Below are positions 12,481-54,439 of a stretch of 64,000 nucleotides of DNA, piece after piece (the first letter of the stretch is position 1; each line of letters opens with the position of its first letter). The notes beneath the pieces were generated by a model. That model had not been told where the DNA came from. It did not search any database and saw nothing but the letters and a program-made list of their open reading frames with translations. The DNA lies in the NCBI GenBank assembly GCA_008632985.1, contig QPGO01000093.1, positions 248,001 through 312,000 of the forward strand, in the 5' to 3' direction. The position numbers were made by a program, and so were the translations under genes. Origin of the DNA: Psammoneis japonica. Taxonomy: Eukaryota.

Positions 12481-13385
12481 TGCTCCTTTTGCTCTGACTG
12501 ATGGTTGAAGAACAAACAAGAGAGCCCACGCATCAAAGTGTGTTCGCCCGCACAAAAATTGCCACTTGGCAATTTTCCGATCTCGGGTTTTTGAGCAGAG
12601 GGAATCTCGGTGTCGAACCGAATGACGCACAAAGATGAAGTTTCAGCTGTCGCGCATTTTGGTGACTTGGCGAGAGATGATCAGTGTTCCTGAGTGCAAA
12701 AGACGGATGCAGCGATTGAGCTCATTGCACCTTGCGGTCATGAACTGCATTCAATGTGCTCATCTTGCATTCTACATCAAATCTTCTCGCTGTGTCACGA
12801 GCGCCACACTCAAATCGCAGTTGACGCGCATGTTGCGCAGACCTTTGAGCATGTTTCAAACGTTTGTTTTCAACCAACATTCAAAACTAAAAGCATCTTG
12901 GAATGGAGCTGCATCAACTGCACACAAAAACATAACAAGAAGTGCTACATTCATTGTTTGGCGATGACACGATGATGCACAGGACACGTGCTGTCGGCTG
13001 TCGGTGGTCGCACGCGATGCCAAGCGGGAAAGCTGACAGAGCCATGGCTGCAAAGGATGAGCTGTTTTGCTTTTCTCATGATTTGATAGACTCAATAGAA
13101 AAGAGCAACAGTGCAATGGAACAACAAGCTCAAGGACATATAGACGAGTAAGAGTAAAGGCCAACGAGCGGCGTCGATGCGTCGGTCGTCATTTATTCAT
13201 GGCCCCTCGCCATAACTACAAGCAGGGCCCTACAATTTGAAATTTTGATTTTCTGGTTTTGGGGTCATTTTTTGATATTTTAGAAGAATCTGCCGCCGAC
13301 GCACAACCCGGAAACCGTCGTGTGACGTGTTCATGGCGGGAAACGTTCCAACCCACATCAAAGTATCCCTTACTACTCATCCACC

Positions 13386-17949: not shown

Positions 17950-19952
17950 GTCCTCCGATGTGCCAGTCACGTGTGGATGTTCACGATGCGAGTTGGTGCA
18001 GCCCAGCGGCACTGTCATCACATTTTGTTTGATCCAGATGGCTCACAGCATCAGCCAGCTGTGTTTTGTGAAAGACTTTTAACTGAGTGCCCATTTGGCT
18101 GCTCAGCAGCAGCCAAAACAAGCATTTTTGCTTGTGGTCTGCCTGCGACGTTGACCTGGAGTGGATGTCATCCAGTTGATGTGCTGAAAGGTGTGCTCAA
18201 AGCTCTCTGTGCACACACACGCTCAAGCTTTGACCATCTGTGCTCACCCAAACTGAGCTGACCTTGCCCTCTCAGTGCCTCCTTCACACAGGGGCTGTGC
18301 TCGACACTCATTTTGCTGAGTGACACCTCTGCCCTGTCTCTGGCACTGCCAGCAGCAGCCAATTTGTTGCATCTGGCCCCAGCACCCCAGCAGCCAATGA
18401 TTGTCAAGAGGCAGCTGAGAGTCCACCACTCATGCTGTGCAGCCCCAGGCTCTGATCCACAGCCCCATGGTGGCCTCCTCCCTGAGAATTGTCAAAACAA
18501 GAGCTCTGTGAGCTCATTTTCCCTGGTGGAAACATCCTGGATGGATGGTCAGACTCAACAGCATCAAGTGATCTGGGCACCAATGCTGCTGGCAGACATT
18601 CCCAGTGCACCACTGAGGATCTGCCTCCTCAGGAGCCAAGAGGCTGTTGACAAAGACTCTGCACCACCCTCTTCTCCCATCACACTGCCAGGATGGCGCC
18701 AAGTTGTCACCAGACAACAACGACGAGTCCAGTGATGAGGACTCATCATCACTGGCTGCTGCACACTGAGGGCCATGCACAGCTTTGCTGCGATGTTTGC
18801 TCCAACAGTGCCGCTGTTGCCTCCATGCACACACCACCACCCAAGCTTGCAATGGGGGTGGGTTGGTGCCAGCAGGCTGCTCCCATCAAGTTTCAAGGAG
18901 AAGAGGCAAGCCCAAGGCCAGCTGGCCTGGTCTGGACCCCTCCATTGACATCTTCCTGTTGCTGCCCAACCACCAGCACCAACCCCACTGCGTTGTGACA
19001 GCCTAAAAAAGAGCAGCCCATCTCCTGCCATGCTGTGCAGGGAAGCTTGGGCTTGGCAGATCAACTGTGTGTGTGCTGCCAGAAGATTGACTTTTTTGAC
19101 TGCAGGATCACCCCAAAGGGGTTTGGCGTTGTGCAGAAGACAGATCCCACTGGGCCTGCTCCTGTGTGCCACCTGTGCTGGACTCAGCCAATGCTGAGCA
19201 CCCTTGCAGCCCAGCAGCAATGAAGCCCTCCCACCAAAATGTCTGCCAAAACCTCACTGTGCCACATCTGTGGTCTGTGGCAAGTTGAGATGCTGGACAG
19301 GAATTGACCTGGGTGTTTCTCCCACTGGCCACATCGACAAGCTGTGCCAGCAGCAATGGGAGTGGTGCAGCAGTGGACAAGGTTTGTGGCACAGTTGCAG
19401 CAGTGGCAACTGCAGCAACCACTGATCCTGAAGGCATGGCAACAGACACAGCCAGGTTGTGCCAGCTGGAAGAAGAAGTGCTTGCTCCCAAGGATGGAGA
19501 GCTGACATCTGAGACTCTGTGGAAGGGGAAAACAGCAGCGCTGAGAAGTGCTCATTCTGGTCTGGCACAAATGACCACAGCAAGAAGCAGTTGGGCTCAC
19601 ATGACTCACCTGTTGCATCTAGCCCAGGTGCCACCAGTGTGTTCCTTGGCTGATCCCAGAGCACGGTGTGCAGCTTTTCACTCACTCCACTTGCTGTGTC
19701 AGTTGTGCTCCCTCACTGGTTTGTTGTGCTTGGGTGCCCTGTGCCCCATTGCATGGGTTTCACTCTTTGCTGCTGCTGGCTGCTGCCCTCCCCCACTTGC
19801 CTGCAGGGTGGTGCTGGCGCGACCCATCATTGTTGAGATTGTCATGTCCCTTGGCACTCTTGTTGTCTCCTCTCAGTTTGCTGGCACCTGCACCCTCTTC
19901 CCACGTGTTTTGAGCTCCTTCTTCCACCTGACAAATGCTGTCTCTCAAGCTC

Positions 19953-20012
<60 letters not shown>

Positions 20013-20560
20013 CTCTTTCCTGTCTGAAGACACAAGGTGGGCTTGGACACCTGTGCTGCTCTCCTTGCCACATGTTCACACCAATGCACACACAAAAACA
20101 TGCCATTTGAGATGTGCTGTGAGCAGGTGTTGCCACGACAAATGCCACCTTGGGCCATTGTGCATGTGCATCATAATTTCACATCTGAGGACATGCAGTG
20201 AACATGACCCCACATGCCCCCCTTGCATCCACATGCAAGACCACACCCTCAAAATGTGCACACTGGGGTGCTGAGATGTGCGCTGAGTGGGTGCTGCTGC
20301 GCTGTGTCAGTGGACTCGAGCACTCTTGCACCAACCTGGCCTCTCAAACATTCTTGCACCCACACCATTTTGACCACAGGTGCCATTGCTTCTGTTGCAG
20401 TTGCTGCTCCAGTGAACACTCTGGAGAACAATGGCGAGCTGTGAGCCACAGATGAGAGGGCGCTGTCTCTGCCACTCTTTTTCTTGCAGAAAAAATGCAA
20501 AAACACGATGTCACTCCCTCCCAGCTGCCCCCCAAAACACAGTGGGCACAATGGAGTGAG
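17950..20560. other. TpA- and CpG-depleted degenerate block
   Basis: Almost no TA and few CG over 2.6 kb. Six-frame translations are Cys/His/Gln-rich and essentially Tyr-free. Confidence 0.9.
19954..20011. repeat. (TG)n microsatellite, ~29 units
   Basis: Read directly from the sequence. Confidence 0.95.
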
Positions 20561-20849
20561 TCACCTCACAATTTTAGAAAGCCTGTTGATTGCCGCATCT
20601 GCTCATTTCTGTCGTACATTGTCAATTCTTGTCACCGTGGCGTGATTTGCTCAAAAAAAGCGCGAAAGTGTGGTGTCTGTTGGTTACCAGCAGGTTGTGT
20701 GCGTCGTTTCGAATTTCACGAGGTCTGTCTCCTCTTGTCACAAAACCTCGCGCGCCGGAAATCTCGCCTGCTGCTTTTTTCTTGCGTCTCGCATCTCGCT
20801 CGGCGCCTTCGTTTGCATCTGTTGTTGCCCATTTCTCAACGAAAGCATC

Positions 20850-31900: not shown

Positions 31901-32169
31901 GGTGAAACGAAAAAAGATTGTGCTGTTGCCAGAAGGTTGTCGCGCGCGGTTAGTCGGCGGTCATCCTAACAGGGGATCGAGCTCTAAAATACGAGCTCTT
32001 TTCGTTTGTTTGGCTGAGTACACGGACATCAACCAGCTTTTTGGATTTGCAGAGCAATCATCTCCACTCCACCCGTCAGACATGTACAAGGTCTGTTAAT
32101 TTTATTACGTCATTGTGGCAGCCAAGGTCGGTTGCAGGCCTGGGAGGAGAGAGAGAAAAAGCACAGGTC

Positions 32170-32346
32170 AGGTGCAAATCATCATGATGCTCTGCATGTT
32201 TCTTGTCCTCGCACCACAATGACGAAGCCCTGATGGAAGCCCAACTTTGCAAGCTTTTCACCTGAAACTGTCAAGAACATCCACTGAAATCAGAAGTTCC
32301 ATCAAACAGGGTTTTTCTTGTTCCACATTGACACATCTCAAACATG
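32170..32346 (-). pseudogene. Mutated copy of the ceramidase 3' coding end and 3' flank
   Basis: Aligns to ~54368-54539; GTRKTLFDGTSDFSGCS versus GTRKILFGGTSDFSGCS in the intact gene. Confidence 0.9.
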
Positions 32347-32369
32347 ACTTTGCAAGGAATGCAGGCAAT

Positions 32370-33249
32370 GGCAAGTTCCTTGTGTCCTTTGCAAGCAGAT
32401 GATTCCCCAACACATGGCAACTCTGTGCAAAGATTCTTGAGGGTCAATGGCTTGGTTCTTTGGTCACCTGTGGGCTGGTCTTGGAGTGCTTGCAAGAGCA
32501 CATGGCAAAGAGCCAGGCACCAATGTGTGTTGCTTGGTTTTGGGGCAAGGCTCAGAGGAGTGAGGCGGTGATCACTTTCTGCCTGTTGCTTCTGCTTTCC
32601 ATCTTGATTCTTGTGGCCTCAGCATTGGCAGAGCAAAAGGCGCAAGGTGCACCCATCCTCATCCAGTCATGGGTCTTTCCAGTTGTGAGATCCAAAGGTG
32701 GGTGCCACATCATCCATGGCAGCTGTGGCGGCCCCTGCCACCAGTGTTTCAAATTGTTCAGCCAAGTGTCAGCCTTCCTGCATGGCAGCTGCAAATGCTC
32801 TGAGGGTGTGAATCCGATGTTGTTGGGCAATGGTGAGCTTGTCCATGAACAGGTGGTCTTTGAGTTCAATTTTGCCAAGAACAACTTTTCCCAGTGGGTG
32901 AAAGCTGTGTCTTGCTTGTTCTTGTCAGTCTCTTTGGCATTTGCTTCTTGATGGGATCCTTTGGTGTCAAGGAGGAGGTTGGTTGGGAAACAACTTCTCT
33001 GGGCAGCAGCAAGATGCAAAAATTGTGATGAAGCAAAAGGGCAAGTGTGTCATCAGACAAGTTGCTGTCTCTCAACAGGCAGTTGCCAACAACGTTCATT
33101 TTGTCTCCAGGAGCTGTTGGCTGAAGGATTGACTGTTGGCACCCATCATGACAGATGCAAACTTGCTGGCAATTTCTGTCTGCTCTGGGTCAGTCTCTTT
33201 GTCAAAGTTGGATTTGCACAGCCAGCCCATGGTGGCAGTGCTGTTGTCC

Positions 33250-33285
<36 letters not shown>

Positions 33286-34200
33286 CACAAGAGAAAGGAG
33301 GGAAGTTGCCTTTGATGCAAGTGATCCACACACACATGACGCTGGTGATGAATTTCTTGGTGTTGAGGGTGAGACTGTGAACCAGGTGATGGGGGAGCTC
33401 CCAACAATGTGCTCAACCCATTTGGACATTGCAGCTGCCAATGCAGTGTTCTGATGTGCATCCAATCAGCAGACATGGGCGGGTTTGTGGCAAGTGATCA
33501 GGCTCAGGTTGATGCCTGGGCATGGATCATGCTGAGTCAGCACAGATGGCATGAGAAATGGAAAGCATGCAGGACAATGTGTCCAAGATGGTTCAGGCAA
33601 CCAACAAGCTGTTCAATCTCCTTGAAGGCACATCCTCCCCTCTTGACAAGTCTTTGGAGTTGCTTGGACCAGGCAATGAGTTTGTGTTTGGGAAGCACAG
33701 TGCGTGCATGTCGTTTGTTTGACAGTCAGCCAAGGGCTGTCCCAAGCACTTCAAGATGGTCTTTGGTGCAGAGCTTCTTCAAACAAGTGAGATCACCCCT
33801 GGCAAAATCTTTGTGAGGGTGAGCTGGTTGGCCAATGTGTGAATTCCCGGAAGTGCTGTTGCTCTTCTCTTCATTCAATGTTGTCGTCAATGTCAGGTGC
33901 AGCTGTCACTGTGTTGACAATGCAGACCTTGACTGTGCCCATCATGTTGTTTAGAGAAATGTTGACTGGCAAGTTGAGAGCTGGTGTGAATGGCACATCA
34001 TTGCTTTCAAAGCAGGGAGAAGGAAGGTGATCAAGTGTGGGGTTGTGGGGGACTGGGTTCCAGGACTTGCATTGAAGGATGTCATTGGACAGACCACACA
34101 CTGATTTGGAGAGATGTCACCCCACAGATTTGGGTTCAGCTTGCCTCTGAAGGCAAATCATCTAAGCTGACAATGGATTGCATGGTGCTGTGGCACTTTT
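32370..34200 (-). mobile_element. Degenerate DIRS/Ngaro-like tyrosine-recombinase retrotransposon (RT, RNase H and YR relics)
   Basis: RT: LSNDILQCKSWNP...PFTPA...GTVKV(C)IVN at the YIDD position, and EIEQLVGCLNH. RNase H: TAMGWLCKSNF and NVVGNCLLRD. YR: DP*LDEDG...GHKNQD, and IGAWLFAM(C)SC(K)(H)SK for the expected AMRSCEY. Confidence 0.75.
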
Positions 34201-34477
34201 CAAGTGGCCTTGGTGACGGGCCAACTTGTGGTCAATCTTCTGCAGCCATCTCTTGGCATTTGCGTTGGGCTGTTCCTTGGGTTGCAAATGGGAAATCCCC
34301 AAAAATGACTGATTGTGGTCATTGCATTGACTTCTGCTCAAACAATGAAGATCACAGACAAGTGCAAAAGCAATTGCATCAAACAGTTTGTGACCCTTTC
34401 TTTCAAAATGACTCTTGAATGTGTGAACATTGCATTTGGACACTTTTGCTCATTCTCACTCTGGAGCCAATTTGTCC

Positions 34478-34665
34478 CACTCTAGAGCTGTTTGACTCTA
34501 GAGAGAATGTCACACTCTAGAATCTTGGGTTCTAGAATGCCGCACTCTAGAACCATTCAATTCTAGAATGGCACACTCCAGAACTGCTCAACTTCAGATT
34601 GTCCTGTTGTGCAGCCATTTGACTCTAGAATGTCACACTCTAGAACTGCTCAACTCCAGATTGCA
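34478..34665. repeat. TCTAGA-cored tandem subrepeat array 1 (~15-17 bp period)
   Basis: Alternating TCTAGAATGTCACAC and TCTAGAACTGCTCAA-like units. Confidence 0.85.
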
Positions 34666-36239
34666 ACGGCTGCTGTTGAGTTTTGCTTGCATCTGTGGCA
34701 GCTGATGGCACCATGGGTTCCAGCTGATGGTGCCATTTTTTTTTACAGAGCTTGGCAACAACCAGGATCAGATTGCAGCTCAGCCAAGATGTGGTCCATG
34801 TTTGGGCACATGCTGCCATTTTTGAGCAATTCTTTCAAGCTGTTCCCATGGTGTTCACAAACCCAAGATTCCAGCATCTTGACAGATGTGACACACTTGG
34901 GCATGCAACATCAGGCTCTCATCAATTCAGGCTCAAAGACACTGTTGATGAAGGGTCTGGGGAGATGTTGCATGCTCAGGAACAAGAGCCACATGGGACA
35001 CAACATGGCAGCTTCATGTCTCCCCTTGTGTGCAGTGTGCCAAATGACAAATGAAGCAAAATTGAGCATGACATCATGTGCTGGCTTTTGACAACCTCAA
35101 ATTTCACCCAGGTCATTGGTGCCAGGTGCATTGTCCAGAAACAGCTTGTCCTTTTCAAAGCACAAATCACTGATTCCTGGAGCTCAAATGAGAACTTCAC
35201 CAAAATTTCCATTCTCCTGTGCGCAAGTGCAAAATCAACTTTGCCACTGACAGCCAAGGGGAGATGTTCACAAGCAACCACTTGATCTGCAACAGATGAC
35301 TTGCCATGCTGCTTCATTGAATTTGGTGTGAGCCTCTGAAAGGATTGATTGAGTCCTTGGCAAAGCAGTGAAATAGAACATGTGTTCCAGAAAGGAATCT
35401 AAACAGCAAATTGCTCTCATTCAATGGTGCTTTTGTTGCAGCATCGACAGTTGTGAGGACAGCAATGCAACATCCAATCAGAGTCAGAGCCACAAGAACT
35501 GTCAAGACAGAAAAGCAGTGTGCAGGTGGGAGAAACAGTGCTTCATCACTCTTGACAAGATTGCAAAACACAAGCAAGTGCATGAGCCGGCACCTTGCAA
35601 CAACAGAAGCCCAGACATGAGAAAAAGCACCCAAGAACTGACAAGGCAGCTGGCCCTGCGGATTTGGAGAGATCCTTGAGGACATCTCAACAACTGTCAA
35701 TCGCTGTCTGAGATGAGCAACAGACAAGTCAGTTAAAATGTGTGCACACTTCAGAGTGGCTGCATCTCAAGCATGCAAAACAATTTGCGCTCACCCCATG
35801 GATGCCCAAATCACCTTCCATTTCCAAAAGCTCTTCTTTTCCATTTTTGACCAACTCCATCATGTGTCTGTGTAGATCAGAGTGCACCAAAAGCATGAGA
35901 TCTGTTGCACACAGGCCAGCTTGCAATTTCAAGACACGCTGCCAGATTCAGAGTGACCATCCATCAGATTTCTGCTTGACAGAACAGCAGCACTGAAAGG
36001 TAGAATCCTTGCATCCATCCCATTCCCAACAATGGTGAAGCCAATGTTTGGTTGACATGTGTGGGGAGCATTGTTGGTGGATGATGTCACTGCACAATGT
36101 GCGTTGACAACATCAGGGCTGCTTGCAGGAAAAGCCTGCATTTGACCCCACTCAGCCTGCAACATGCATGGCACCAGAGGTGCAAGAATTCTCATCCACA
36201 AAAACAGCACAAGGAATGCTGTGAACCCCAGTGCACAAC

Positions 36240-36680
36240 CACAAATGCAAGACAGCCCACTCTGCTTCAAATGGGTGCCTTGACATTTCCTGTTGCAACA
36301 GCACAAGCAATGGTCAGTGGAGTCTGTGAGAATGTTTCTTTGATGTGCAGACTTCCAAGCCACAAACAACAAACAGCAGAGAAAACAAGCTCACGAGAAG
36401 GTGCAAGGCACCTCTTTGCTTTGCCAAAATGATGGATGCAATGCCAAGACAATTTGCACTTGACAAACTGACAGACATTTCCCATTGCAATTGCACAAGT
36501 GCTGGCAGACAGTGGAGTCCACCATGAGAACATTTCTTTGACATGCAAGCTGTCCAAGAAGCCACAAATCACAAAGCACAGAGCAGACAAGCTCACAAGA
36601 CATGCACGCCATTTTGCTTTGCTGAAATGATGGACATGACCAAGCCAATTTGCACTCGAGCAAATGGCAGTTGCAACAGT
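36240..36680 (+). repeat. Degenerate ~190-bp tandem repeat (at least 2 copies)
   Basis: gacatttc...ttgca...gcacaag...gtggagtc...gagaa...tttctttga...gccacaaa...aagctcac recurs at ~36280-36430 and ~36475-36630. Confidence 0.65.
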
Positions 36681-37636
36681 GTGGGACCCCTTTGAAAACA
36701 TTTGACACCAGGAAGGCACAATTGCCGGGGAACATTCATCCTGAGAGATGCCATTGCTGAAATGCCTGACTGCAAACACAAAGAAAAAAGATGAAGGTGT
36801 GAGCACAAACAGCAAATTTTCTCCATTGCCCACAGTGCTGCTGAACTTTGCTCACCACCACCAACAAAGCAGATGTCACAGATTGGAAAGGAAGCAGTGG
36901 GCTGAGGTGCCGCTGCTCTGCTTTGGACACAGAGCTGTCTGAAGTGCTTTTGACATGTCATGCCATGCTGTTCTGCACCACTTTCTCCTTTGTAGAAGTT
37001 CTTGCAGGTGCAGCATGTTGGGACAGGCAGAAGTGCCAGCATTGTCCACCTCATTGCATTGTTTTGTCATTCGTGTGTGTGCTGAGTGCGTGAATGGTGT
37101 GCGGCTGACAACAGACAATTCACACACCTCTGGCATGGCACAAGGTGTCATTGCTCCCAGACTGGAGTTTGCAGCAACCAGAACACCAATGGCGAGTGCA
37201 AATTTCAACAAAATTCCTCTTTCAGACCCTCTCTGTGAAAGAGAAATGAACTTAGAGTGCAGATGGCTTTTTTCTTAGCTCACAACATTTTTGTGCTTCA
37301 TGCTTTTGGCACAACATTGTTTTGCCAAAAACAGAAGCACAAAATAAAAAACAACATTGCTGACCCCTCACAGGCATGAGGAAAATTCCGGTGGTGTCAA
37401 GAATGGATGTGTTGACAGTGACAGCTGCTGAACTGCTGCAAAAGGGCCTCAAGCTCACCTGTTGTGACTGTGCACAGCACACAGCACCAATGCATTTGAA
37501 GTGTCAAAGACTTGAAAATTGCACTTGGCTTCACCCAGCAGCCTTGTAAATCCTTGGCTTTGCTGGCACATTGGACGTTGGCCTTGTGATCTTGCAAGTG
37601 GACAAAAAAAACAGCTCTGGAGCAGAGATCATCTCA

Positions 37637-37812
37637 GTTCTAGAATGTCCCACTCTAGAGCCATTTTAGTTCTAGAATGCCATGTTCCAGAGCTGTTCAA
37701 TTCTTGAGTGTCACATTCTAGAGCTGCGCAATTCCAAAGTGTCACATTCCAAAACTGTTTGATTCCAGAGTGTGTCACAATCCAGGCTGCATTTGTCCAC
37801 TCTAGAACTGCA
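37637..37812. repeat. TCTAGA-cored tandem subrepeat array 2
   Basis: Same unit family as array 1; several cores have decayed to TCCAGA. Confidence 0.8.
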
Positions 37813-39929
37813 AGCTGTCTCACAGAAGGGACAAATCATGCACAAACAAAACTTTCCCTTGTGATGCAACAAATGTCTTGCTTTTTGTTCCAAATCATGA
37901 CTTTTTTGTTGTTTGAGTCTCACAACAGTCTTTTGTGTTGGCGCTGGCAGCGTCATCATTTGCGCTGGCAGCAACCCACATTGTTGTGGTTGTCATGCCT
38001 TGAGAATCAACAGATCAAGTCGTTTCCTTTTTACAAACAAGTGCATCTTGAATGTGTTTGTCCAATGCCGAGAAGTCTTCGATCATGTCATTTCCGAAGT
38101 GTGTCATCTGGGCTGCCGTGTGTGTCATCATCAATCTTCTTGGTGGCGACACAAATGACACACTCTCACATTTTGCAGCAATGGTGTCTGAGCCGATCCA
38201 TGATGGTGTTGCAGCATGCTCTCGCATGCGTTTCACACCTCGCCGTTTGGATTGCACCTCTCTGTTGCACACATTGTGACAGAAGCAGGCATTTGCAGCC
38301 AAAACAACCAGTCCGTGTGACCAACCTGCACTCCCAAAATGATCTGGTGCCCTGGTTTTGCATGAAGTGGACTGCAGTGCTCAAGCCACTTCTAAGAAAA
38401 CCAGTGGGCTGTTCACTCTGTCTGCTTCCGACGCCAAATCCTGCACAGACCACCACCCAATGCCGCCGCAATGCCAAACCCAACTCTCCATCCGACCTCC
38501 AATGACAAATCCTGCACAGCCACACTTCGCTGCCAACATCCAACACCTCCTGCGCAGCTTCAACGAGACCTGCGTCAACGTGGTTGACTCCAACACCACA
38601 GACTGAAACGCCACCTGCTCCTGCCAGCACAATGCCACCTCCGCCATCAGCCATCAGCGATGACTCCAACATGCTGCCAGCGCAATCACCGCCAAGTGTC
38701 CCCACTTGCGCCAATGCCACTGACTGAATTGCCGGCTGCTCCAGATCCAGAGACAATGACGCCGCCTGCATCAACGTCACCATCAACAACGCCACCTGTG
38801 CCGATGCAAATGCAGCAACACTGCACACACCTCCCTCTGCCCAACCTCTGATGCTGTGAGTCCTGCAAAGACACCCACCCAGCACCGCCGCCATCACCGA
38901 ATCCATCCATGCAAAGCGCGGCCAAGCCCCTGGTGTCCCCTTTGACGAAATCACCACTGCCTCGGGCAACTCATGCTCGCTCCAACAAAGCACCCAACAC
39001 GCCACCACCTGTGTCAAGAAGACTCCATGTCGGACTGCACAACTGAACCAACATTTCTGTGGCGACTCTTGGCTGATGCGAGTCATTCAAAAATTTGCTT
39101 GAGCGTGTGTGGGACCCAAAACATTGCGAGTGTCGCACAAACACATGTCCCATGATTGTTTCATCCAAAGGAAGAAGCGATGTGAGTTTTTCATGTCGCT
39201 CGGAAAGAAAAAAATGTGAGGTGCTGAAAAGTTGAAAAGGTCATGAGATGACACTCTGCACAATGCCTCGCATGATTTTTCTGCAGCGGATGGAAGAACA
39301 GACAATGTGCCGGGCCCACAGCTGTGATGTCCCACCTTTCACGTGGTGTTCTCAGCACTGCACTCCCAGTCTTGCAGCCCCCCATTGCTGTCCAGTTCAT
39401 TGGCAACTTCTGTCAAAGCTGACATGTGCTCCTGTGTGTTCTGCTCTGTTTGCACCTTCTTGACACTCTTGTTGCAACTCTTGAGAGACATCTCTCTTGC
39501 CTCCTTGAGCTTGTCTGCTGGCTCCTGCACCAATCCTTGTTCTGTTGGCTGTTCTGAGTCTTTCTCCAACAAGGTGAATGTGCTCAAGCCATTGTCTGCA
39601 TCCTTGTGCACTGCCATGGCTGTTTCTGGCATGATGCTTTTTCACACAAGTCCTCCCTTCTGGTGACAGAGTTCCCTCATTGTTGACCTCAACATCACAG
39701 TCTCTCATCAAAGCACTCTCCTTGTTGTTGCTCTTCTTGTACTCTGCATGCCACACATCAACAAAGTTGTTTTTCATGAGCATGCACCCAAAAGCTTTGG
39801 CACACAACATGTTCATCCTCATGGGGTGCAACTGCACAGTCTTGTGCTTTTGTTTGGCATCCAACCATGCCATGCATTCAGTCAACAAGCATGTTTGTTT
39901 GTTTTGTTTTGCATGCCAGAAGGTGGGTC

Positions 39930-42900
39930 AACTCTCGCTGGCCCTCAGACAGACATGCAGAGTGAGAACGCCTTGTTGATCTGTGCATTGCCCTTGTGAG
40001 ACAATGTCAAATGTGCTTGCCTGCTGAAAAAAGCATGAGAGGCTTGTGAAGCGCACAAGAGCCATGTGACCTGATCAGCTGTGCAAGCAAATGTGGCACT
40101 GGATGACTGTTTTCTGCCAGCTGTGTCAGCCAATGGCAGCAGAGCAGTTGTCAGAGTTCTTGTTGAAAGAAGAGCTCTCCAGCGGGCACAGGAGTTGCAG
40201 GGGCAGGTGCTGCATCTCACAGCCTTCCTTCTTGGCAGTGAGCAGGACTTTTTTGGCAGGCCAAGAAGGGCAAGCAAAAGCTCACTGTCACCTCACCTTG
40301 CTGAGTCAAGATGGTGCTGAGAAAATTGCCAATTTCTTCTTTGCAGCAAAGACTTTGACTTCACCATCAAGAATCCTCACATTGCCAGCATGGCCAACAG
40401 CTTCAACTTGTTTGTTGCTTGTGAGACAATGTCAATGTGCTTGCCTGCTGAAAAGCATGAGAGGCTTGTGAAGCACACAAGAGCCATGTTGTGACCTGAT
40501 CAGCTGTGCAAGCAAATGGCATTGGATGGCTGTTCTCTGCTGGTTGCATCAGCGCGCCATTGGCAGCAGAGCAGTTGTCAGAGTTCTTGTTGAAAGAAGA
40601 GCTGCTTGCACTCTCTCCGGTGGGCACAGGATTTGCAGGGGCAGGTGCTGCATCTCACAGCCTTCCTTCTTGGCAGTGCACAGGACCATTTTGGCAGACC
40701 AAGAAGGGCGATCAAAAGCTTGCTGTCACCTGGCCTTGCTGCACCCTGACGGTGCTGAGAAAATTGCCAATTTCTCCTTTGCAGCAAAGACTTTGACTTC
40801 GCCACCATCAAGAATCCCCACATTGCCAGCGTGGCCAACAGCTTCAACTTGTTTGCTGCTGGCACTTTTTGAGCTTTGTTTCTGCACCCACAGGTGTTCA
40901 ACCAACCTTCGCCACTTGTTTGTCAGGTTGTCATCCTGTCTGCAGCTGTGGCGCAGTGCAAGGCAACTGCAGTCAGAGCCTCTTTGCAGCACAAGTTCTT
41001 GTGCACAGAGCTGTGGTGGATGTGGAGCATCAGCCAGAGGTGTGTCACACAACACAGGACATCTTTGGCTGATGAAACCAAGAGAAAGCATCTCAAACTT
41101 TGCAGTGGAGAGGATGTTTTGCAACGCACAGCTGCCAATGAGAGTCGATGCATCACGGCGACGTGTTGCAGCCTTTAAATGTCACAAAGGGCGTGACAAA
41201 AATGACCTTTTGTCTGCATGCATGCTGCGTTGTGATTTCATGGCGGAGTGGTTCATCTCGCAACCATTGGGCAGGAGGCCAGGGGTTCGAAACCCTGAGT
41301 GGGAGTTGTCTGCAGCAACGTTGATCACTGTCGAACGCGCAAAACTCTGTGCAGTTCTGTGTGTTCCTTCGCACGTACCCACACTGTTCCGCCAAAACCG
41401 TGCAGTGTCAGTGCACGTCAGTAAAGAGCCGCATGGACGCGTGACACATGGGGAGGAGTGCAATGTGCAGCTGCCAACAAGAGCCAATGTGTCACGGCGA
41501 CGTGTTGCAGCCTTTAAATGTCACAAAGGGCGTGACAAAAACAACCTTTTGTCTGCATGCATGCTGCAGTTTTGCTCTGCAGTGGCGCAGCTTTTGGAGC
41601 ACCAGAGAGACAGCTGTCATGGAGGGCAAGCAACACACAACAAAGAGGAGTTGCAAATTTGTTGCAGGTCCAAAGGGGGTGCTTCCTGCAAGGAAGCAAT
41701 GCTGCTGCTTCACCTGACAATGCTTGCCACCTGTCTCCCAGTGTCGTCAGAGGAGACGCCTGAGACCATGACGTGTGTGCAGCTGAAGGAGCCAGTGTGC
41801 GCTTCAAGTGCACGGGAACAGCTTCCAGCTGCGCACAGGCAGCTGTGCACTGATGAGAAAATTCTCTTGATTTTTTCCTTGAGCAGGGGTTTCATCCAAA
41901 GGATCACTTGAGAAAAAATCAAGGGGTGGCTTTGCCGCAAAAGAATTGAAGCAGTTGCGTTTCTTGTCCAAGAGAGAAAGCAAGACCCCTGATGATGGCA
42001 CTCTGTGTCACTTTGCAAGGCACCATGCATCAGATTCAAAATCAAACAGGAAAGAAAGCTCTCCTCTCAGTGAGCCAAGCTTCAAAATGATGCTCAAGAA
42101 CTGCTTGCTGCACACAGTACATCATGTCCAAAAATTGCAGCTTCAGAAAATGACAAAAAACTGGCAAAGTGGGAAATGATGACCACTTTGCAACAAATTC
42201 AACTTCATGACATGAAACCATTTGGAAGCTTCTCCATGATCTCTGTTGCCTTGTTGGGCGACTCTGAAAGTGCAGTGCTGCTGTGGCATTGTGCCCATCA
42301 GATCTTTGTCCTTCAAATTTGGGAGCCTGCTGCAAGAACCCCCCAGCTCATTCAGCTCAGGACAAGTGGGCAAACCTCCCTTTCACAACCACTCAAAAGA
42401 TCCAGCAAAGAACAGATTTGGGAATTCCACACCCTGTGTGGGTGGTTGCAAAGATCAACCTTCCACTGCAGCAGTGTTGTTGGTGCCAAAGGTGTTTGGT
42501 GTGCTGGAAAACCCCAACATGATGCAGGTTTGGAAAGACACAAAAAGTCTTGCCAATGCTGCAAAGGTGTTTGGCACATTGGAGAACACCAAATCATTGA
42601 CTTGGATGGCCTCTCTGGGCACATCAGGTTGCAGCTGGTTTGTTTTGGATTGTTGCACTCATTGCAAAAACAAGTGGTGCACAGAGCCAGATCACAGTCA
42701 CAACCCAATGTGATTTTGCCACAGACAATTTTGTGCTTCTTGTTGTGCAGCTCAGTGAGGCAGTGTGGCATGCTGCAGATGCAGCCTGGTTTGATGCAAC
42801 ATGCTGAAGGGCAAGATCTTTCTTCTTCTTCTTCTTCTTCTTCCCTGGCATTTGACTGACCCCTCTGCAAAGACACAAGAGCCCCTTGAATGGAGCCAGA

Positions 42901-45285
42901 ATTGCCAACAAAAAAAGCCAGATGTCCTCTTTGTGCATGCCATCTCTGTGACTCAGATGGGGGCATCTTGCTTTTCTGTCCCCTTTGACTGGCTGGCCTT
43001 CTGGCCAACATGCCTTGCAACTCTTGTGCTGAATGATCAGCTGGGTTGTGCTGGTGTGTGACAGCTGGTTGTTTCTGAACCTGTGACATGATGCCTGTCT
43101 GGATGACTTTGTTGCCCATGCATTGGGCCCAAATCTGCACATCTGACCAGGTGCCTGGTTTTTGCATTCCTTGTCATCTTTGTTGGGAGCATGCACTGCA
43201 ACCCCCTGTCTCTCTGTTCTGCCATCTTTTTGCAGATGTGGCCTTCCACAGCTGAAATGCACCATGGTGAGTGTGGCTGTTGCAGACAGCAAAAATCCAG
43301 ACCTTGGCTCAGCTTTGCTCATTGACTCTGTCCAGCATCCAATTGGCACACATCAACTGCTTCCTGCAGCAATGACCAGTCAGGTTTGGAGGGGTGTGTC
43401 TAGCTTTTTCATCCAAAAACAGCTGGGCTCACATTTCATCACTCCGCTCCAGCACTCTGGAGTTGTCTTTGTTCTGACTCCCACTGCAACATCCTGACAG
43501 CATTGCTGCACTCAACCATTTCTGACAAAGGCCAGTTTTTCAGAGGTGCTCACATTTGCAGCAGAGCTTGGAAAACACCTTCATTGGGAGTGTGACATCC
43601 ATGGCAGCTCAGCTGGTGCTGAAGAGTGGTTGCTTGCAACAGAGTTGCCAGAGCAACTCAATCCAAGATTGGGTTGCCAGCCCCCAAAGCCTGTAAAAAT
43701 TCAAAGTGAAGAGCTGGCCCACAAAATGCTCTGCTTCTGGAGTTGTTGTTTTGAGAGCTTGGCAGAGCTCCAGACCCATTGCTGAGGGCAGTTTGCTCTG
43801 TTGAAAAGGAGCACTTCCAGCTTTGCCAGTCTCCAAGTCCATTGAATCTCCACAGTGCTAAAAAATGCAACACCTTCATTGAGCGAGAGTGGGCAGAGCC
43901 CAGAAAGGGCAGTGCTGCCTCAAGCTTTAAACAAGGGTTTTTGCATCTGTGTGGGCACCCCCTTTTTGTCATCAAAGCAGTTGCCAGTGGGCACTCCAGC
44001 AACTTTGGAACACCTCCTGTCAGCAACAGCAGCAACTCTGCATGGGTGAGGTGACCACATTGCACCTCATCACCCCACTCCACTTTGTGACCTTTGCTTG
44101 CATTGCACCTCTGCCTTTGCCCTCAAGTTGCCATCCACAGTGACCCACACCATCTGCAAAAACTTTCCTTGCTTCCTGGGCCTCTGTGGCTGGTCAAAGG
44201 TGTCATTCTGCCTCTTTGCAACCCAGGAGGGGGACACCACCTGGCATTTGCTCTGTCATCTCCATTGTCTGGCAGCACTGTCTGTTGGTTTCCCACACCA
44301 CTTGAAAGGGGCCAGCAGCCAGAAGCTTTCATCTGACCCAAGTGCTTGTCCAGCAGCAGCACACTCTCTCCCTTCCCCCAACAGTCAACCGCATGCTGAG
44401 TGCCACCAGAGTGCCACCACCTTCTTGCAATGGGTTGCCTTGCCACCTGCTGACATGTCTGGCAGATCTGCGCCATCCACAAATGTGTGGAAGGTGCAGC
44501 GCTCATTTTGTGTCTGTTTCTAAAAGGCCGCATTGCTTTGATTTTGCTGCTTTGTTTTTCACATCAGCTGTCATGATGTTTGACAATTGACTTCATGGCT
44601 GGACACAAAGGCAAAGTTTTGAAAAGTCAAAAACCAAAGTTTTCTGGGCCAATTTTGACAATTTGAGGTAACTCATTTTGAAAAATGGGCTCTTTGGAGC
44701 TGCTCTGAGATCTTTTGTCTTGGGCATCGTGTGCCACAGACCACGGGGGTTGGGAGAATGCACAATTGTCTGTGTGGCTGTGGATCTTGCAATGGGTGGG
44801 CCTTGATCTGAGCTGAGGGCATCAGATGTTCACCGGTCATTTTGTGCACACATGCGCACAAAACAACAGACTGTCTCTGTGTGCCTCTGGAGCATGCCAC
44901 CCAGAGGCTCACTCCACAACTTCTGAGCTGCTGGTTGGAAGCAGTGCCAAAGGAGGCAAAAACAGCAAAAACAGCCAGTGCTTCTGCAGAGCCTCGGGCC
45001 AAGCCTCTGCCAAGTGAGCATGGGGCAAGTGACAAGCTGGGGCAGCCACCCACAGCTTCAAAGTGTGGCTTTGCTGTTGTGTTGTGGCAAGCGTGCTGGT
45101 GCTGCTCTGACCCAGACCATTGCGCCACTTCATTCATTTTTTTGACATCTCATGCACTGATGTCACTTTGTGAGCCATGCATCCATTTTATTGCTTCAAA
45201 TCTTGAAAAGTGTCTGTTTCATTTGGTTTCATGCGTTTGTTGTGTTTTGTTTGAAAATTTCAAACGGCATGGCATTTTTGAAGCC
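39930..45285. repeat. Copy A of a ~5.4-kb directly duplicated unit, with an internal tandem duplication (39997-40415 / 40418-40860)
   Basis: Collinear matches: 39930-40230 with 45750-46050; 41630-41985 with 46070-46400; 41985-43570 with 48370-50070; 44970-45285 with 50440-50710 plus 51290-51415. Confidence 0.8.
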
Positions 45286-46759
45286 ACCATGCAAACCACA
45301 TGCTGGTCATGGTGCACAACCAAGTCACAGGGCTGGAACATGTCAGCATGATGTTCCTTGCACATGACAGAATGCAAAGGCACAGCAAGTTTCCTGCCAG
45401 GAAAGATGGGAAGCTGGCTGGTGCTGGCATCAGCAACATCTTGGAAAGCCCTCCTCAATTAAGAGCACCAGGCATCTCATGGCTGTGCTGATTGTGTCAT
45501 GTGAAGACACACACATTGATCTGTTTTCAGCACCCTGCAAACAAGAATGCACAGCCAGGGATGGGGTGACACACTCTCAGCTTCCAGGGCACACAGGGTG
45601 CTCAAAACCACAGAGCTTCTTGGACACCTCTGTGCAATCAGAGATCCATCCAGCACAGAAAATCAAACACCCAGGTCAGGAGACAGATGTTGGGTCATGC
45701 CTGTTTTGACACACAAAAAAATCCAGCAAAGTCTGAACCCATGTGGCAGTCAACTTTTGCTGGCCCTCAGATGGAAATGCAGAGTGAGGATGCCTTGCTG
45801 ATCTGTGCAGTGCCCTTGAGACAATGTCAAACGCACTTGCCTGCTGGAACATGGGAGGCTTGTGAAGCATGCAAGAGCCATGTGACCTGATCAGCTGTGC
45901 AACAAGCAAGCTGGCTTTGGACAGCTCTGTTTTCTGTGGTCACATTGGCGCAGCTGCAATTGCTGGAGTTTTTGTTGAAAGAAGAGCTCATTGTGCATCC
46001 TCTGCAACTGGCACAGGAGTCATGGGGACTGGTGCTGCATCTCACAGCCTTCCTTGGTTTTGGGGTCATCCAGCGCACAATCAACCCACAGCACAACAGC
46101 AACCCTGTTAAAAGAGTTGCCCAAATTTGTTGAACAATGCTTGCTGCCTGTCTCTTGCCATCACATGAGACATTTGAGATCATGGTGTGTGCGCGGTTGA
46201 AGGGGCCAGTGTGCTTCAAGTGCACAGGCACACTTTCCGGCAATGCAGAACTGCAAACTGATGCAAATTGTCTTGATTTTTTCCTTGCGCAGGGGCTTCA
46301 TCCACAAAGGATTGCTTGAGAAAAAATCAAAGGGGTGGCTTTGCCGTGCTGAAAAATTAAAAAAAGATTGAAAAAGTTGCATTTCTTGCCCAAGAGAGAT
46401 GTTGCAGTTTCACAGCTTGCTGCCCAGTGTGCATTTGGTCTCACTGACCCCAAATTCATCATGTGGCTTTCAAACACATTCCAGTGCTGTCAACCTCTGT
46501 TGCCACATTGGCCGGGTGCAAAAGCCAAAAGGTGAGCACAAGACCCACTCAATCCAAGTTGCAAACGCAAATTTGCCACATTGATCACAATTGTCAATGT
46601 GTCTTCCACTGCAACTTTGTTTGTCTCTGTCCCACAAAATCTGCCTCCAACCCCAATGTTCCAAAACACTCCTTTGCACAAGCCATCAATCGACTGGCCT
46701 TGTGTGTGTCAAACACAGGAGGACAACACTTGGAATCCATGCCACAATCCAATGCCACA

Positions 46760-47900
46760 TCGACTGTTCCGCCAATTCCCATGGTCTGCATCATCCAACT
46801 CCATCAACAAATGACTGTTGTCAGGACAATCCTTTCTCACATGCCCAACCTCATTGTGTTTCCAGCATCCAGTCTGCTTCTTCTTCTTGTGTGCAAAACT
46901 TGTGCCTTCCTCAGGTTTTTTGTTGGTCCTGCTGGTGTCCAACAACCACCTGTGGTGCCTCCTTGGCTGAACTGGGACAAATGTCACCCCCCAATGTGAG
47001 CTGCTGATGAAGGTCTTTCAAGACATGCCAACATTCCTTGGCACCTTCCACTGGCATCACCGCTGACAAGAGCTTGTTCCTTTCTTTGTTCCAGGTGTCA
47101 CAGGCTTCCTTGCTGAACCCATCTTGTCTCTCAGCAATTTCTTCCAGGATGGTCCTGCCATGGGACATCTCTGCTGCTTCAGCCATGTTCACAAACCAAT
47201 TGTGATGATCTTGAAGTGCCTCTCCCTTGTCTTGACAAATGAGGGCCAACTGCTTCAAAGCCTTGACAGCCTGGGCATGCAAGTTTGTCTTCTCATTTGC
47301 ATCAAACAAGATTGACTTGAGAACATCCAGCAGTGCCGCCACTCCCCGCTCCTCAGCAACTCTTGCAAACTCTGCCACTCCTTCAATTTTGTGATGAATG
47401 GCCTTTGCACATTGCCCCACAATTGTGCTGAACACCCTCACCTTCTGCATCTTGCAGACCATGTTCTGTTTGGCACAGTGACCACATTGCTTGCCCCCAG
47501 ATTGCCTTGTCCTTCTTTGACAACATGGTGTCTCCCAATGGACAATCCAGATCTGTTGGCATGCTCTCCTGCCTCACAGATGCCAACACCTGCATCTTGT
47601 CTGGCCCAAACATTCTTCCAACAACACTCAACAATCTTCCTCATGGTTTCCATGTGACCTCTGCCTGTCATCCTAACTTGGCAATGGTGTCATGCACCCA
47701 CTCCTTCAAATCTTTTGTGCTTTTGCACTCAGCTGTGTCCTTGCCCATGTTTTCTGGGACTTGTGTTGGAGTTTTGCTGCTTGCCAACTGCTGCACACTC
47801 TGTCTTGCCAGCCCCAACATGGCCTCACCACACCCTCTTCAGCAGACCCTTGGCAGCTTCTTTGACAGCAAGGCCCTCAGAGATTGTTTCTTTGCCCTCA
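46760..47900 (-). mobile_element. Ty1/copia (CoDi-like) gag relic
   Basis: KVRVFSTIVGQCAKAI..KIE...LLDVLKSI...Q..GE.LQD(HH)NWF, followed by a degenerate zinc knuckle CWKHNEVGHVRKDCP. Confidence 0.7.
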
Positions 47901-47943
47901 TCCAGCTGACTCGCTCATCACAATCTGCCAACACAAGGCATGC

Positions 47944-48033
47944 CTTTGGATTCCTGTCAACTTCCAGCTTTTCCTTTGGATTCCTGTCAATCTCCCAGCC
48001 CTTGACTTTGGATTTCTGTCAACTTCCCAGCCT
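47944..48033. repeat. Three ~30-bp tandem repeats (CTTTGGATTCCTGTCAACTTCCCAGC-like)
   Basis: Read directly; lies at the 5' side of the gag relic. Confidence 0.85.
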
Positions 48034-50726
48034 TTCAACAACACCACTCCTTTGAGTGTAATGCCATGCCTTTTTAGCTTGTCCCATGTTGTCAGAGTTT
48101 CACAGCTTGCTGACCACCACATGTGTGTTTTTGGTCTTGCCAACCCCAAACACACCATGTGGCTCACAAACACATTGCTGATGGTGCTGTCAGCTGCTGT
48201 TGCCATGTTGTGCAGAAGCAAAATGAAGTGAGCACAAGACCCACAAGAACTCAACCAGAGTCATGAAAGCAAATTTGCCACATTGTCCACAGTTGACAGT
48301 GTGTCTTGCTTCCATTGCAACTTTGTCTGTCTGTCCTGCAAAAAGTGCCTCTGACCACAATGTTCTGACAAAAGAAAGCAGTGCCCTTGATGATGATGGT
48401 GCTGTGCATTGCTTTGAAAGGCACCAGGCATCAGATTCAAAATCAAACAGGGGACCTGCTCTCTCAGCCAGCCAAGCTTCAGCACAATGCTGAAGAGCTG
48501 CTTGCTCTGGACACAGCCTGTGTCCAAAAATTGCAACTTCAGAAATGACAAAAAACCAACAAAATGGGAAATTACAAATTTGCAACAAACCCAACTTCAT
48601 GGTGTGAAACCATTTGGAAGGCAGCTTCTCCACAATCTCTGCTGCCTCATTGGGTGACTCTGAAAGCACCAAGCTGCTGTTGCATGGCTTTGTGCCCATC
48701 AGGTCCTTTTCCTTCACCAAATTTGGACACCTGCTGCAAACCAGTCACTCAGCTCAGGACAAGTGGGCAAACCTTTCTTTCACAATCACTCAAAAGATCC
48801 AGCAAAGAACAGGTTTGGAAATTCCACCCCCTGCATTGGTGATTGGAAAGGTCAATCTTTTGCTGCACACTGCCACACCCGCAGACTGTTTTTTTGGGCA
48901 AAGAACTTTGTGCAGCTTGAGAAAATTGTCTCAGGATCAAAACCAGCATGAGGTCCTCTTCTTGGTGCCAAAGGCATTTGGTGGTGCACTGGAAAAACCC
49001 AACATTTCACAGGCTTGGAAAGACTGATGAAAGTTTTGCCAGTGCTGCAAAGGTGTTTGCACATGACTTGAGAACACCAAATCATCAATTTGGATGACAT
49101 GGGTTGCCCACATGTTTGGCGTTTGGCGGTTGGGTCTCAATCCAATGGACTGACTGTGTCTCCTCCCTGCACCCATCAGATTGAAGTTTGGATCATCACA
49201 ATCATTGCAGAAACATGTGGTGCACAGAGCCAGATTGCAGCCACAACCCAACTTGGTTTGGCCTCAGCCAGACAGTTTTGTGTGTTTGTTGCATGGCTCA
49301 TGCAGCAGCAAGGCAGTGTGGCATGCTGCAGATGCAGCCTGGTTTGATGCAATGAGGAGCAAGATCTTTCCTCTTCCCTGACAATTGATTGACCCCTCTG
49401 CAATCCAATGGAGCCAGAATCATCACAGCTGCAGCCAGCAGCCAGATCATCTTTTTGCAAGATTTCTCCATGACTCAGATGGCAGTGTCTTCTCTGTCCC
49501 CTTTCTTGACTGGCTGAACCTCTGGCCAACTTGTCACACAACTGCTGTGGATGATCAGCTGGATTGTTGCATGGCTGCCAGTTGCTCCTGAACCCACGGC
49601 ACATCTTTCTCAACAATTTGCTGCCCACGCATCATTGGACCCAAATCTGCCATCCAACTGAGTCATGGGGTGCTTTCATTGTCATCTTTGTTGAGGGTGT
49701 GCACTGCAAACCTCTGCCTCTGTCTTGTTGTCTTTGCAGATGTGGGTTCTCCACAGCCAACAAACACCAAACAGTGAATGTTTCTGTCACAGGCAACAAC
49801 CCTGACCTTGGCACAGCTTCAAGCACTGACTCTGTCCAATGCCCAAGTGGTCTGCATCAATTGCTTCCTGCCACACAATGACCAACCAGGTTTGGAGGGG
49901 TGTCCAGCTTCATCAAAAGACAGCCAGGTTCATGTTTCATCACTCCATCCCTGAGTGCTCCAGAGTTGTCTTTGTCCCATCTCCCGTTGCAACATCCGAC
50001 ATTGTTGCTGCGCTCAACTGTTTGTGACAAAGGCCATTTTTTCAGAGGTGCTCACCTTTGTGGCAGAGTTTGCAAAACAACTCATGCAGTCTGTTGGAAC
50101 ATTGGGGCTGGAGAGGCAGTTTTCACATGACAGAGAGACAAGCTGCAGCTTGAGATGTGCTGGCGGCAATTGTGGACAGCATGGCAAGTTTGGTGCACTT
50201 GCAGCTCAGATTGAGTTGCGGGTCTTGTGCTCACATTTTGGCTTCTGCACCCAGTTGACATGGCAATGACAGCTGGCAACATCTGCCAATGTGCTTGCAA
50301 GCAACGCAGCTGGGCGTCACAGGAGGCGAGACCAAACGCGCGCCAGTTGGCAAGCTGTGAAACCCCGAAACTGTCAGAAAACATGGCGCCATCCTCCCAA
50401 AGTTTGTGAGAGCTCACGCAGCTGGCAATGGCAACTCAACTGCTTTTGCAGAGCCTTGGGCCGAGGAGCTTCTGTGAAGTGAGTGCAGAAGTGACTGGCT
50501 GGGGCAGCCACCCACAAAAACTCCAAAGCATGGCTTTGCGCTGTTGTGTTGTGATGTGCACACTGGTGCTCTGACACCACCCAGAGTTGTGTGTTGAAAG
50601 CAAAGCCAGGTGCAGCTGAGCTTGCCACAGTCGCCAGCCACAGAAGGCTGGGCAGTTTTTGAGATTGAAGTGGAGCGTGTGCACTGGCAGACCTTTGCAC
50701 CACTTTGTTTTTTGCTTTGCTTGCTA

Positions 50727-54048: not shown

Positions 54049-54439
54049 GCATGGCCAGAATGACAACATGCTGTAACGATAATGTCAGTTTCAGATGGAC
54101 ACACGACATCAAAACATCAGTTAAACTAAACCAGTCGATACCAATAACACAAGCTATTAGCGCTCTTTGCACTGAATATACGGTATATGAGTTCCTACTT
54201 CTGAACTCGCAAGCACGTTTTAGTTGAAGAGGAAGATAGATACCGGTAGCACTAGAGATAGAGCGCGCGCCCGGGCTCGGAGGGCGGACATCTTCAGGTT
54301 GCGTTTGTCCGAAGCCTTACTAGCAGCCAAACACTGAAAACATGAAGAAGGCTATCAACCTTGTACGGTGCTAATCATCACGTATCACGTTGCAGGTTTG
54401 TCTTCGACACAATGGTGAAGCGCCATTGGAGAACCGACA

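Follow-up and report, generated by a model that had tools for sequence, protein, structure and literature searches.

The 64,000-nucleotide stretch of Psammoneis japonica DNA analysed here (GenBank assembly GCA_008632985.1, contig QPGO01000093.1, positions 248,001 to 312,000 of the forward strand; the whole stretch is called the window) contains five blocks from which the dinucleotide TA has almost disappeared, and the survival of the remaining TAs depends strongly on the bases that flank them. Only 78 TAs are left in the 25.2 kb of depleted DNA, against 1376 in the remaining 38.8 kb, referred to as normal DNA. TAs preceded by a pyrimidine and followed by a purine (YTAR, with Y for C or T and R for A or G) were spared, those in the opposite arrangement (RTAY) were nearly all lost, and mixed contexts lay in between. 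This dependence is a new observation, and it holds with or without two arrays of the palindrome TCTAGA that lie in the largest block.

Counts of all 16 NTAN tetramers were compared between depleted and normal DNA, once with the arrays and once without them, and the normal DNA of the same window, scaled for length, was used as the baseline. With the arrays excluded, the flank classes survived as follows:
YTAR: 30 survivors, 224 in normal DNA, length-scaled survival 0.21
RTAR and YTAY: 31 survivors, 735 in normal DNA, length-scaled survival 0.067
RTAY: 3 survivors, 417 in normal DNA, length-scaled survival 0.010
Comparison of the three classes gave a chi2 of 46.5 (p 8e-11). For the ten strand-symmetric tetramers chi2 was 70.6, a value that none of 20000 permutations reached. 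ATAT, of which about 68 copies were expected, is missing from the depleted DNA and occurs 107 times in normal DNA; the corresponding counts of survivors and normal copies are 0 and 193 for ATAC/GTAT, 19 and 109 for CTAA/TTAG, and 9 and 54 for TTAA. In the large block, 32 of the 49 TAs are YTAR: the arrays contribute 14, and the 35 TAs outside contribute 18. A preliminary description, made from the letters alone, had proposed that YTAR is spared and TAY or RTA consumed, that the residual TAs of the large block are mostly of the YTAR type, and that ATAT is absent. The counts bear out all three statements, and the equal survival across contexts that it had named as the contrary outcome was not seen.

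The five depleted blocks are listed below by their positions in the window; no strand applies to any of them.
1 to 800: TA-depleted tract, 6 TA, most CG retained
1801 to 3000: TA-depleted tract, 4 TA, CG retained in part
10601 to 12800: TA-depleted tract, 14 TA, CG mostly retained
18001 to 20600: tract depleted of TA and CG, 5 TA
32201 to 50600: large block depleted of TA and CG, 49 TA in 18.4 kb, 14 of these in the arrays; a scan of its open reading frames found no Pfam family
The flank effect was found in the large block (p 1.7e-7), in the four small blocks (p 5.6e-5) and in the block cores after 200 bp had been trimmed from each edge (p 1.5e-10). The blocks are sharply bounded and lie beside genes with Pfam domains. 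Between 32 and 50 kb the TA odds ratio is 0.00–0.14, compared with 0.3–0.7 in the gene parts, and in the depleted blocks CA and TG are in about twofold excess (odds ratios 1.5–2.3). Normal DNA has 57 CG per kb; of the depleted DNA, 17.6 kb are down to 0–13 per kb and 5.8 kb have kept their CG. These two portions are called CG-lost and CG-kept below.

Since the purine/pyrimidine class of a flank is not altered by transitions, the TA share of all pyrimidine-purine steps could be used as a second, transition-proof baseline, and this returned the same three survival values. Within the depleted DNA alone, TA accounts for 30 of 1413 pyrimidine-purine steps in YTAR-type flanks, 31 of 3140 in mixed flanks and 3 of 1491 in RTAY-type flanks (p 2.4e-6).

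The flank rule is graded and reaches beyond a plain purine/pyrimidine distinction. When both strands are counted, the base after the A of surviving TAs (+1) is A in 44%, G in 27%, C in 23% and T in 6% of cases, compared with 21, 22, 29 and 28% in normal DNA. The integrated loss rates by +1 base are 0.52 for A (bootstrap interval 0.34–0.72), 1.05 for G, 1.62 for C and 2.89 for T (2.39–3.87), so that loss falls in the order T > C > G > A, with a T/A ratio of 5.6 (bootstrap 3.7–9.6). One base further out (+2), A is twofold enriched among survivors, and inclusion of this position in the fit gave a likelihood-ratio chi2 of 21.6 (p 8e-5). The length-scaled survival of half-sites is 0.178 for TAGA, 0.098 for TAGC, and 0 for both TATC and TATA. 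TACG is not favoured as a target, the fitted rates being 1.76 for TACG, 2.27 for TACC and 2.10 for TACT. When sites are classified by the number of strands on which they read TARA, survival rises with each strand:
TARA on 0 strands: 19 survivors, 1055 in normal DNA, length-scaled survival 0.028
TARA on 1 strand: 36 survivors, 292 in normal DNA, length-scaled survival 0.193
TARA on 2 strands (TYTARA): 9 survivors, 29 in normal DNA (18.5 expected), length-scaled survival 0.486
The mutation rate at TYTARA is thus roughly one fifth of that at sites without TARA on either strand.

The depleted blocks were changed in place by transitions of TA to TG or CA. Portions of this DNA are repeated within the window and in contigs of one public sequencing run containing this stretch, which were compared at 80% likeness. 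Between paralogs within the window there are 469 transitions and 220 transversions, and the paralog identity of 71–87% in raw letters increases to 85–92% in purine/pyrimidine letters. At 93 sites one copy reads CA and the other TG, and at 43 sites CG stands against TG or CA. The paralogous contigs of the sequencing run differ from the window by 880 transitions and 235 transversions. A single before/after pair was found in the window:
32160 to 32345, plus strand: mutated copy of the normal stretch 54355 to 54540
The two copies, of which the mutated one sits at the left end of the large block, align over about 170 bp, with 76% identity in raw letters and 94% in purine/pyrimidine letters. Where the normal copy has TA, the mutated one has TG (2 sites), CA (1 site) or a transversion. 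A self-comparison of the window in purine/pyrimidine letters lengthened the known pairs and revealed no further pair of a normal with a mutated copy. Two CGs of the mutated copy have no counterpart in the normal one, and direct descent of either copy from the other is therefore excluded.

Contigs of the same sequencing run that represent this very locus differ from the window at 11 places, four of which are CG or TA against TG or CA (33094, 33720, 34164, 34542). One of them is the surviving CTAA site at 34163–34164, which is TA in the window and TG in the contig. These differences may be allelic variation arising from the same mutational processes.

CG was lost to TG and CA in the same silent DNA, as can be seen from the CG densities of the tracts and from the 43 paralog sites; this is the pattern expected of methylation-deamination decay at CpG. 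The flank dependence of this CpG decay differs from that of TA loss. With both strands counted, GCGC retains 104 of 135 expected copies, ACGA/TCGT 40 of 267 and TCGA 44 of 248. A hand tally of the 43 paralog-polarised sites found A or T 5' of the mutated C in 25 cases and 5' of the C on the unmutated strand in 11, and G or C in 18 and 32 cases, respectively. These polarised sites yielded no consistent context correction that could be applied to the question of the strand. The 17.6 kb of CG-lost DNA has a strong excess of YTGY/RCAR over YCAY/RTGR (TG minus CA 532 against 194 expected from normal DNA, sd 46), and this excess goes with the loss of CpG, not with that of TA. It may stem from a bias of CpG decay towards one strand or towards certain contexts, or from the base composition that the repeats had originally.

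The two arrays and the DNA between them are located as follows (no strand applies):
34460 to 34660: array 1, a 31-bp unit with two cores; 12 cores, of which 8 are intact TCTAGA, 3 CA-type and 1 TCTGGA
34661 to 37615: interior, poor in TA and CG like its surroundings; 11 TA, 10 of them TAR on the plus strand
37616 to 37806: array 2, homologous to array 1 (about 90% purine/pyrimidine identity); 12 cores, of which 5 are TCTAGA, 5 CA-type, 1 TCTGGA and 1 TCTTGA
The window holds 20 copies of TCTAGA, 13 of them in the arrays (8 at 34481–34644 and 5 at 37639–37806); shuffled sequence contained 5.8 on average, and none of 100 shuffles reached 20. The 24 in-register cores consist of 13 intact copies, 8 of CA-type (TCCAGA and derivatives), 2 that read TCTGGA and 1 that reads TCTTGA. 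The outermost cores, at 34460 and 37616, were assigned by judgement, and 13 of 22 are intact when both are left out. The preliminary description had noted about a dozen TCTAGA cores in two arrays and, from the presence of decayed cores, only partial protection, which agrees with these figures. The decayed cores comprise 8 of CA-type and 2 of TG-type (two-sided P 0.11), and each TG-type core is the first unit of its array. Because the 31-bp unit is close to a palindrome, array 1 matches array 2 in both direct and inverted orientation; the arrays may be terminal direct repeats, or subterminal repeats of an inverted-repeat transposon. The interior contains a tandem duplication (36282–36474 and 36474–36670), and a Pfam scan of the open reading frames in depleted DNA recognised no protein between 34661 and 37615.

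TCTAGA reads TAGA on both strands and therefore belongs to the class with the slowest loss. The survival of 13 of the 24 cores does not differ from that of TYTARA elsewhere, whether the latter is taken as 0.49 (P = 0.37) or, in the large block only, as 0.44 (P 0.21), and it lies far above the mean survival of 0.05 (P = 2e-11). Flank context is thus the main reason why about half of the array cores persist. The preliminary description had offered protein binding at the arrays as an alternative, and this is not needed to account for most of the persistence, given that TYTARA survives about equally well elsewhere. Nevertheless, the cores might owe their persistence to shielding of the arrays by a bound transposase or repressor, or to array turnover that restores units, in place of flank context. 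Consistent with shielding, the cores are palindromic and evenly spaced, which is common in binding sites; the depleted DNA has no TCTAGA outside the arrays, where about 4.5 would be expected from the 7 in normal DNA; and array survival exceeds the prediction of a second fitted model (0.29, P 0.008) as well as that of the site model considered below. However, such binomial P values overstate the array excess, because array units are not independent trials. Moreover, the interior between the arrays and both array flanks are fully mutated, and TYTARA sites outside the arrays (9 survivors) persist at a rate indistinguishable from that of the array cores. With respect to turnover, units within the arrays differ by about 20%, and a hand alignment of the arrays showed only one shared decayed core among about ten aligned positions. 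Decay of the two arrays was therefore largely independent, and recent homogenisation is unlikely. Shielding or turnover as the cause of core persistence appears improbable to us. An even less credible origin of the flank bias is a wrong baseline, namely a different original NTAN make-up of the repeats, or the formation of fresh TAs by back-mutation of CA and TG. The baseline is indeed gene-rich and avoids in-frame TAA and TAG, and the abundance of CA and TG makes some back-mutation inevitable. Yet the flank effect persists within depleted DNA alone (p 2.4e-6), which also counters context-blind back-mutation, and all five normal blocks have more RTAY than YTAR, the opposite of what is seen among survivors. 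In our judgement, 3 TAT among 64 TAs is likewise not expected of natural DNA. We consider this origin highly improbable.

How the two flanks combine bears on whether one strand or the duplex is recognised. The preliminary description had deduced from the sparing of YTAR, which has no TAY on either strand, that the target is T-A-Y. A single-strand adenine deaminase directed to 5'-T-A-Y-3' and acting on the two strands independently does predict the observed order of YTAR over mixed over RTAY. The step from YTAR to a single-strand target is not established, given the strand symmetry of survival, the multiplicative action of the flanks and the lack of product asymmetry in CG-kept DNA. With seven parameters each, the log-likelihood was 107.26 for a site model, in which the flank contributions multiply, and 115.05 for a model with additive per-strand rates, the additive model giving the worse fit. 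The observed difference was not reached in any of 300 simulations under the additive model, and it stayed above 0 in 99.7% of 400 bootstraps in which both survivors and baseline were resampled. The 31 TAs of the mixed flank class compare with 33.3 predicted by the multiplicative and 22.8 by the additive model (P 0.059), and the 36 with TARA on one strand with 37.5 and 21.8, respectively (P 0.003). Uneven exposure of the tracts can only lower the additive prediction; this follows from the convexity of the Laplace transform, by argument and not by computation.

The products of mutation were used as a second line of evidence on the strand. In pooled depleted DNA they lean in the direction expected for T-A-Y. 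Between pyrimidine flanks (Y..Y) TG gained 681 and CA 286 copies, and TG minus CA gain is positive when the 3' base is T or C and negative when it is A or G; TG followed by RA gained only 27 copies, CA followed by RA 336. Paralog sites that are concordant in the Y..Y orientation are TG/TG in 232 cases and CA/CA in 96. CpG decay, however, also yields TG and CA, and the asymmetry goes along with the loss of CG rather than with that of TA, so the pooled TAY to TGY pattern is not decisive for the strand. In the 5.8 kb of CG-kept DNA, the weighted TG-minus-CA score deviates by −2.9 (sd 13.6) from the normal expectation, compared with +28.7 or −28.7 under strand-specific models; a simpler TG-minus-CA count in these tracts gave +27 (sd 26). 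A regression restricted to depleted chunks gave a TA coefficient of −0.42 (sd 0.38), at variance with the regression over all chunks considered below. Three TA sites of the before/after pair are cleanly polarised, one agreeing with T-A-Y (TTAC to TTGC), one contrary to it (CTAAA to CTGAA) and one uninformative. Regional strand bias could not be used, as CA and TG counts per 800 bp were too balanced. Multiplying flanks together with the absence of product asymmetry in CG-kept DNA favour recognition of the TA step in the duplex over a single-strand T-A-Y target. Recognition at the level of the duplex is thus the better-supported reading, which we hold with slightly more confidence than doubt; the single-strand deaminase is rather unlikely in our estimation.

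Several points weigh against the picture of flank-determined loss with duplex recognition. The rates are coarse, as only 64 survivors lie outside the arrays, with 3 in the fastest and 9 in the slowest class. The state before mutation is represented by gene-rich DNA of the window rather than by unmutated copies of these repeats, and coding DNA under-represents TAR, which by our estimate could inflate YTAR survival perhaps 1.5–2 fold. Survivors at TACA derive in part from TATA after a first hit, and the apparent survival of TACA is inflated accordingly. The fitted site model underpredicts array survival (0.33 against 0.54, P 0.027), and a modest additional effect of the arrays is possible. As regards the strand, in the test on CG-kept DNA each strand model lies no more than about 2 sd from zero, and CG-lost tracts show a strong product asymmetry of the TAY to TGY sign (YTGY +519 against YCAY +184, z about 7–8). 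A regression over all 160 chunks gave a TA coefficient of 0.40 (95% interval 0.13–0.67); this corresponds to 0.70 for TA to TG in Y..Y flanks, near the 0.72 derived by hand from the fitted strand rates of the T-A-Y model. Finally, survival is strand-symmetric and cannot separate TAY from RTA on the changed strand, or chemistry at A from chemistry at T.

Taken as a whole, the explanation that we favour, by a little more than an even chance, is a TpA-directed mutator with a sequence preference that extends over two bases on each side, whose flank contributions multiply and whose recognition unit is the duplex. Of the flank rule by itself we are nearly certain. The depleted blocks would be silent and mostly repeated DNA in which TpA-directed transitions rewrote TA to TG or CA while ordinary-looking CpG decay ran alongside. 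Loss would be fastest with T after the A (or its complement before the T), followed by C, G and A. An A at +2 (equivalently, a T at the second position ahead of the T) would slow it further. The effects of the two flanks would multiply, with the TA step and its flanks acting as one duplex unit, such that RTAY sites are erased essentially completely, ATAT being the extreme, and TCTAGA falls into the slowest class. The enzyme presumably works on double-stranded DNA or reads it, sensing how the TA step is shaped or how easily it deforms, and would then alter one strand or the other at random; the chemistry would be adenine deamination. A more specific form of this proposal, in which the mutator reads a TpA-step shape or deformability that is set by two base pairs per side (best for ATAT, worst for TYTARA) and then converts either strand, is put forward only tentatively.

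Among known systems, repeat-induced point mutation (RIP) of Neurospora and other ascomycetes likewise consists of transitions confined to repeated or silent DNA; it converts CpA to TpA and enriches TA. The restriction to transitions, the dinucleotide preference and the sharp-edged tracts beside intact genes are shared with the present case, whereas the direction is reversed, TA being removed and CA/TG enriched (A:T to G:C). In place of a TpA excess in repeats we found a 10–50 fold depletion of TA and an enrichment of CA. Adenosine deaminases of the TadA and ADAT2-3 type share the A-to-G outcome, the T (U) 5' of the target A and the pyrimidine at +1, and early TadA-derived adenine base editors prefer YAC. 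The preliminary description had been reminded of TadA and its UAC substrate. The resemblance proved weak: T is preferred over C at +1, TACG does not exceed TACC or TACT, there is no preference for G at +2, and two-sided multiplicative flanks do not fit a loop or single-strand substrate. The +1 order of T > C > G > A thus departs from the U-A-C-G rule of TadA/ADAT, a statement that concerns the substrate rule only. Hyper-editing by ADAR resembles the present case in the A-to-G outcome, in the targeting of repeats and in the preference for a 5' U. Here, however, the TA requirement is near absolute, and both DNA strands were changed at the same sites in different copies (the 93 CA/TG sites), which departs from an ADAR-type rule of 5' U or A, 3' G and action on the transcribed strand. 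TAG belongs to the spared contexts, and TAT is lost most of all; this contradicts a 3' G preference only if it is the base 3' of the changed A that decides. The hot spots compared here, 5'UAG for ADAR and 5'ACG for TadA/ADAT2, are those given in a table of the review PMC10661471.

The closest match is a process described in Bigelowiella natans, where integrated giant-virus and virophage DNA undergoes de novo hypermutation at TpA only (Mettrop et al., bioRxiv 10.64898/2026.01.13.699255). The process reported there alters TA alone, giving TG or CA according to the strand, and over time leaves TA depleted and CA plus TG enriched, a signature similar to the one described here. It is also local and directed at foreign or repeated DNA, which may hold for the present blocks as well. 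The hallmarks of TpA-specific hypermutation, namely TA to TG/CA with TA loss and CA plus TG gain, were found in the window. Differences from that description are the other lineage, the transposon-type appearance of the repeats, the additional loss of CpG and the near-complete erasure. A word search of the main text of the preprint found no information on flanks; its figure 2B and supplements may bear on them. In the literature on diatoms, our search for this signature found no report.

A physical basis for the flank preference is conceivable. Base-pair opening is slow next to A-tracts. In simulations of B-DNA, the flank classes R..Y, Y..R and mixed set the twist state of pyrimidine-purine steps, the mixed class being in between (ABC consortium, PMC4231739), and a study devoted to CTAG found its TpA step to be modulated by the surrounding hexamer (Balaceanu et al., PMC6511876). 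The same three flank classes order the behaviour in both cases with the mixed class intermediate; the cited studies, unlike ours, concern physical properties of naked DNA and no mutation process. By this analogy, TpA-step physics is a plausible basis for the preference of the mutator.

The window as a whole is eukaryotic, and open reading frames in its normal part encode CAP-Gly, Duc1, astacin, FAD-monooxygenase and other Pfam domains. None of the 42 open reading frames scanned in the depleted blocks matched a Pfam family above the cut-off; there were only weak matches below it, and no transposon protein was identified among them. Rfam and tRNA searches of the window found no RNA genes. An open frame of 479 codons (40472–41911, plus strand) lies in TA-free DNA where only TGA stops remain; a hand estimate puts its chance occurrence at about 1%. 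Its translation is of low complexity, rich in Cys, Arg, Ser and Leu and without a family match, and the frame is probably not a gene. The region 40797–42024 is a very high-copy repeat, with summed contig depths of 49459 and 21320 in two bins of the sequencing run against roughly 50–340 in most other bins; its TA is gone, its CG is retained (30–45 per kb), and it contains a 135-bp duplication (41120–41254 and 41459–41593). Surviving TTAA sites were considered as target-site duplications of young insertions, and this was rejected, as the pair at 46109 and 46358 encloses no inverted repeats.

The quantitative flank rule provides a first fingerprint against which candidate enzymes of TA-specific hypermutation can be tested. 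It argues against an ADAR-like preference, provided that the deciding flank is 3' of the changed A, and is only loosely TadA-like. The multiplicative action of its two sides points to recognition of the duplex. The rule further predicts in which flank contexts the 231 reported de novo mutations of Bigelowiella should lie. Since the rule explains which sequences escape erasure, it offers a more specific signature for finding the process in other genomes. We know of no natural, context-dependent A:T-to-G:C editor of duplex DNA described for adenine, and if the duplex reading is true, this would be a natural editor of that kind. Repeats could then keep functional palindromes such as TCTAGA, possibly sites of transposase binding, by virtue of their membership in the resistant class, and mobile elements could evolve resistance by recoding their TAs into TYTARA.

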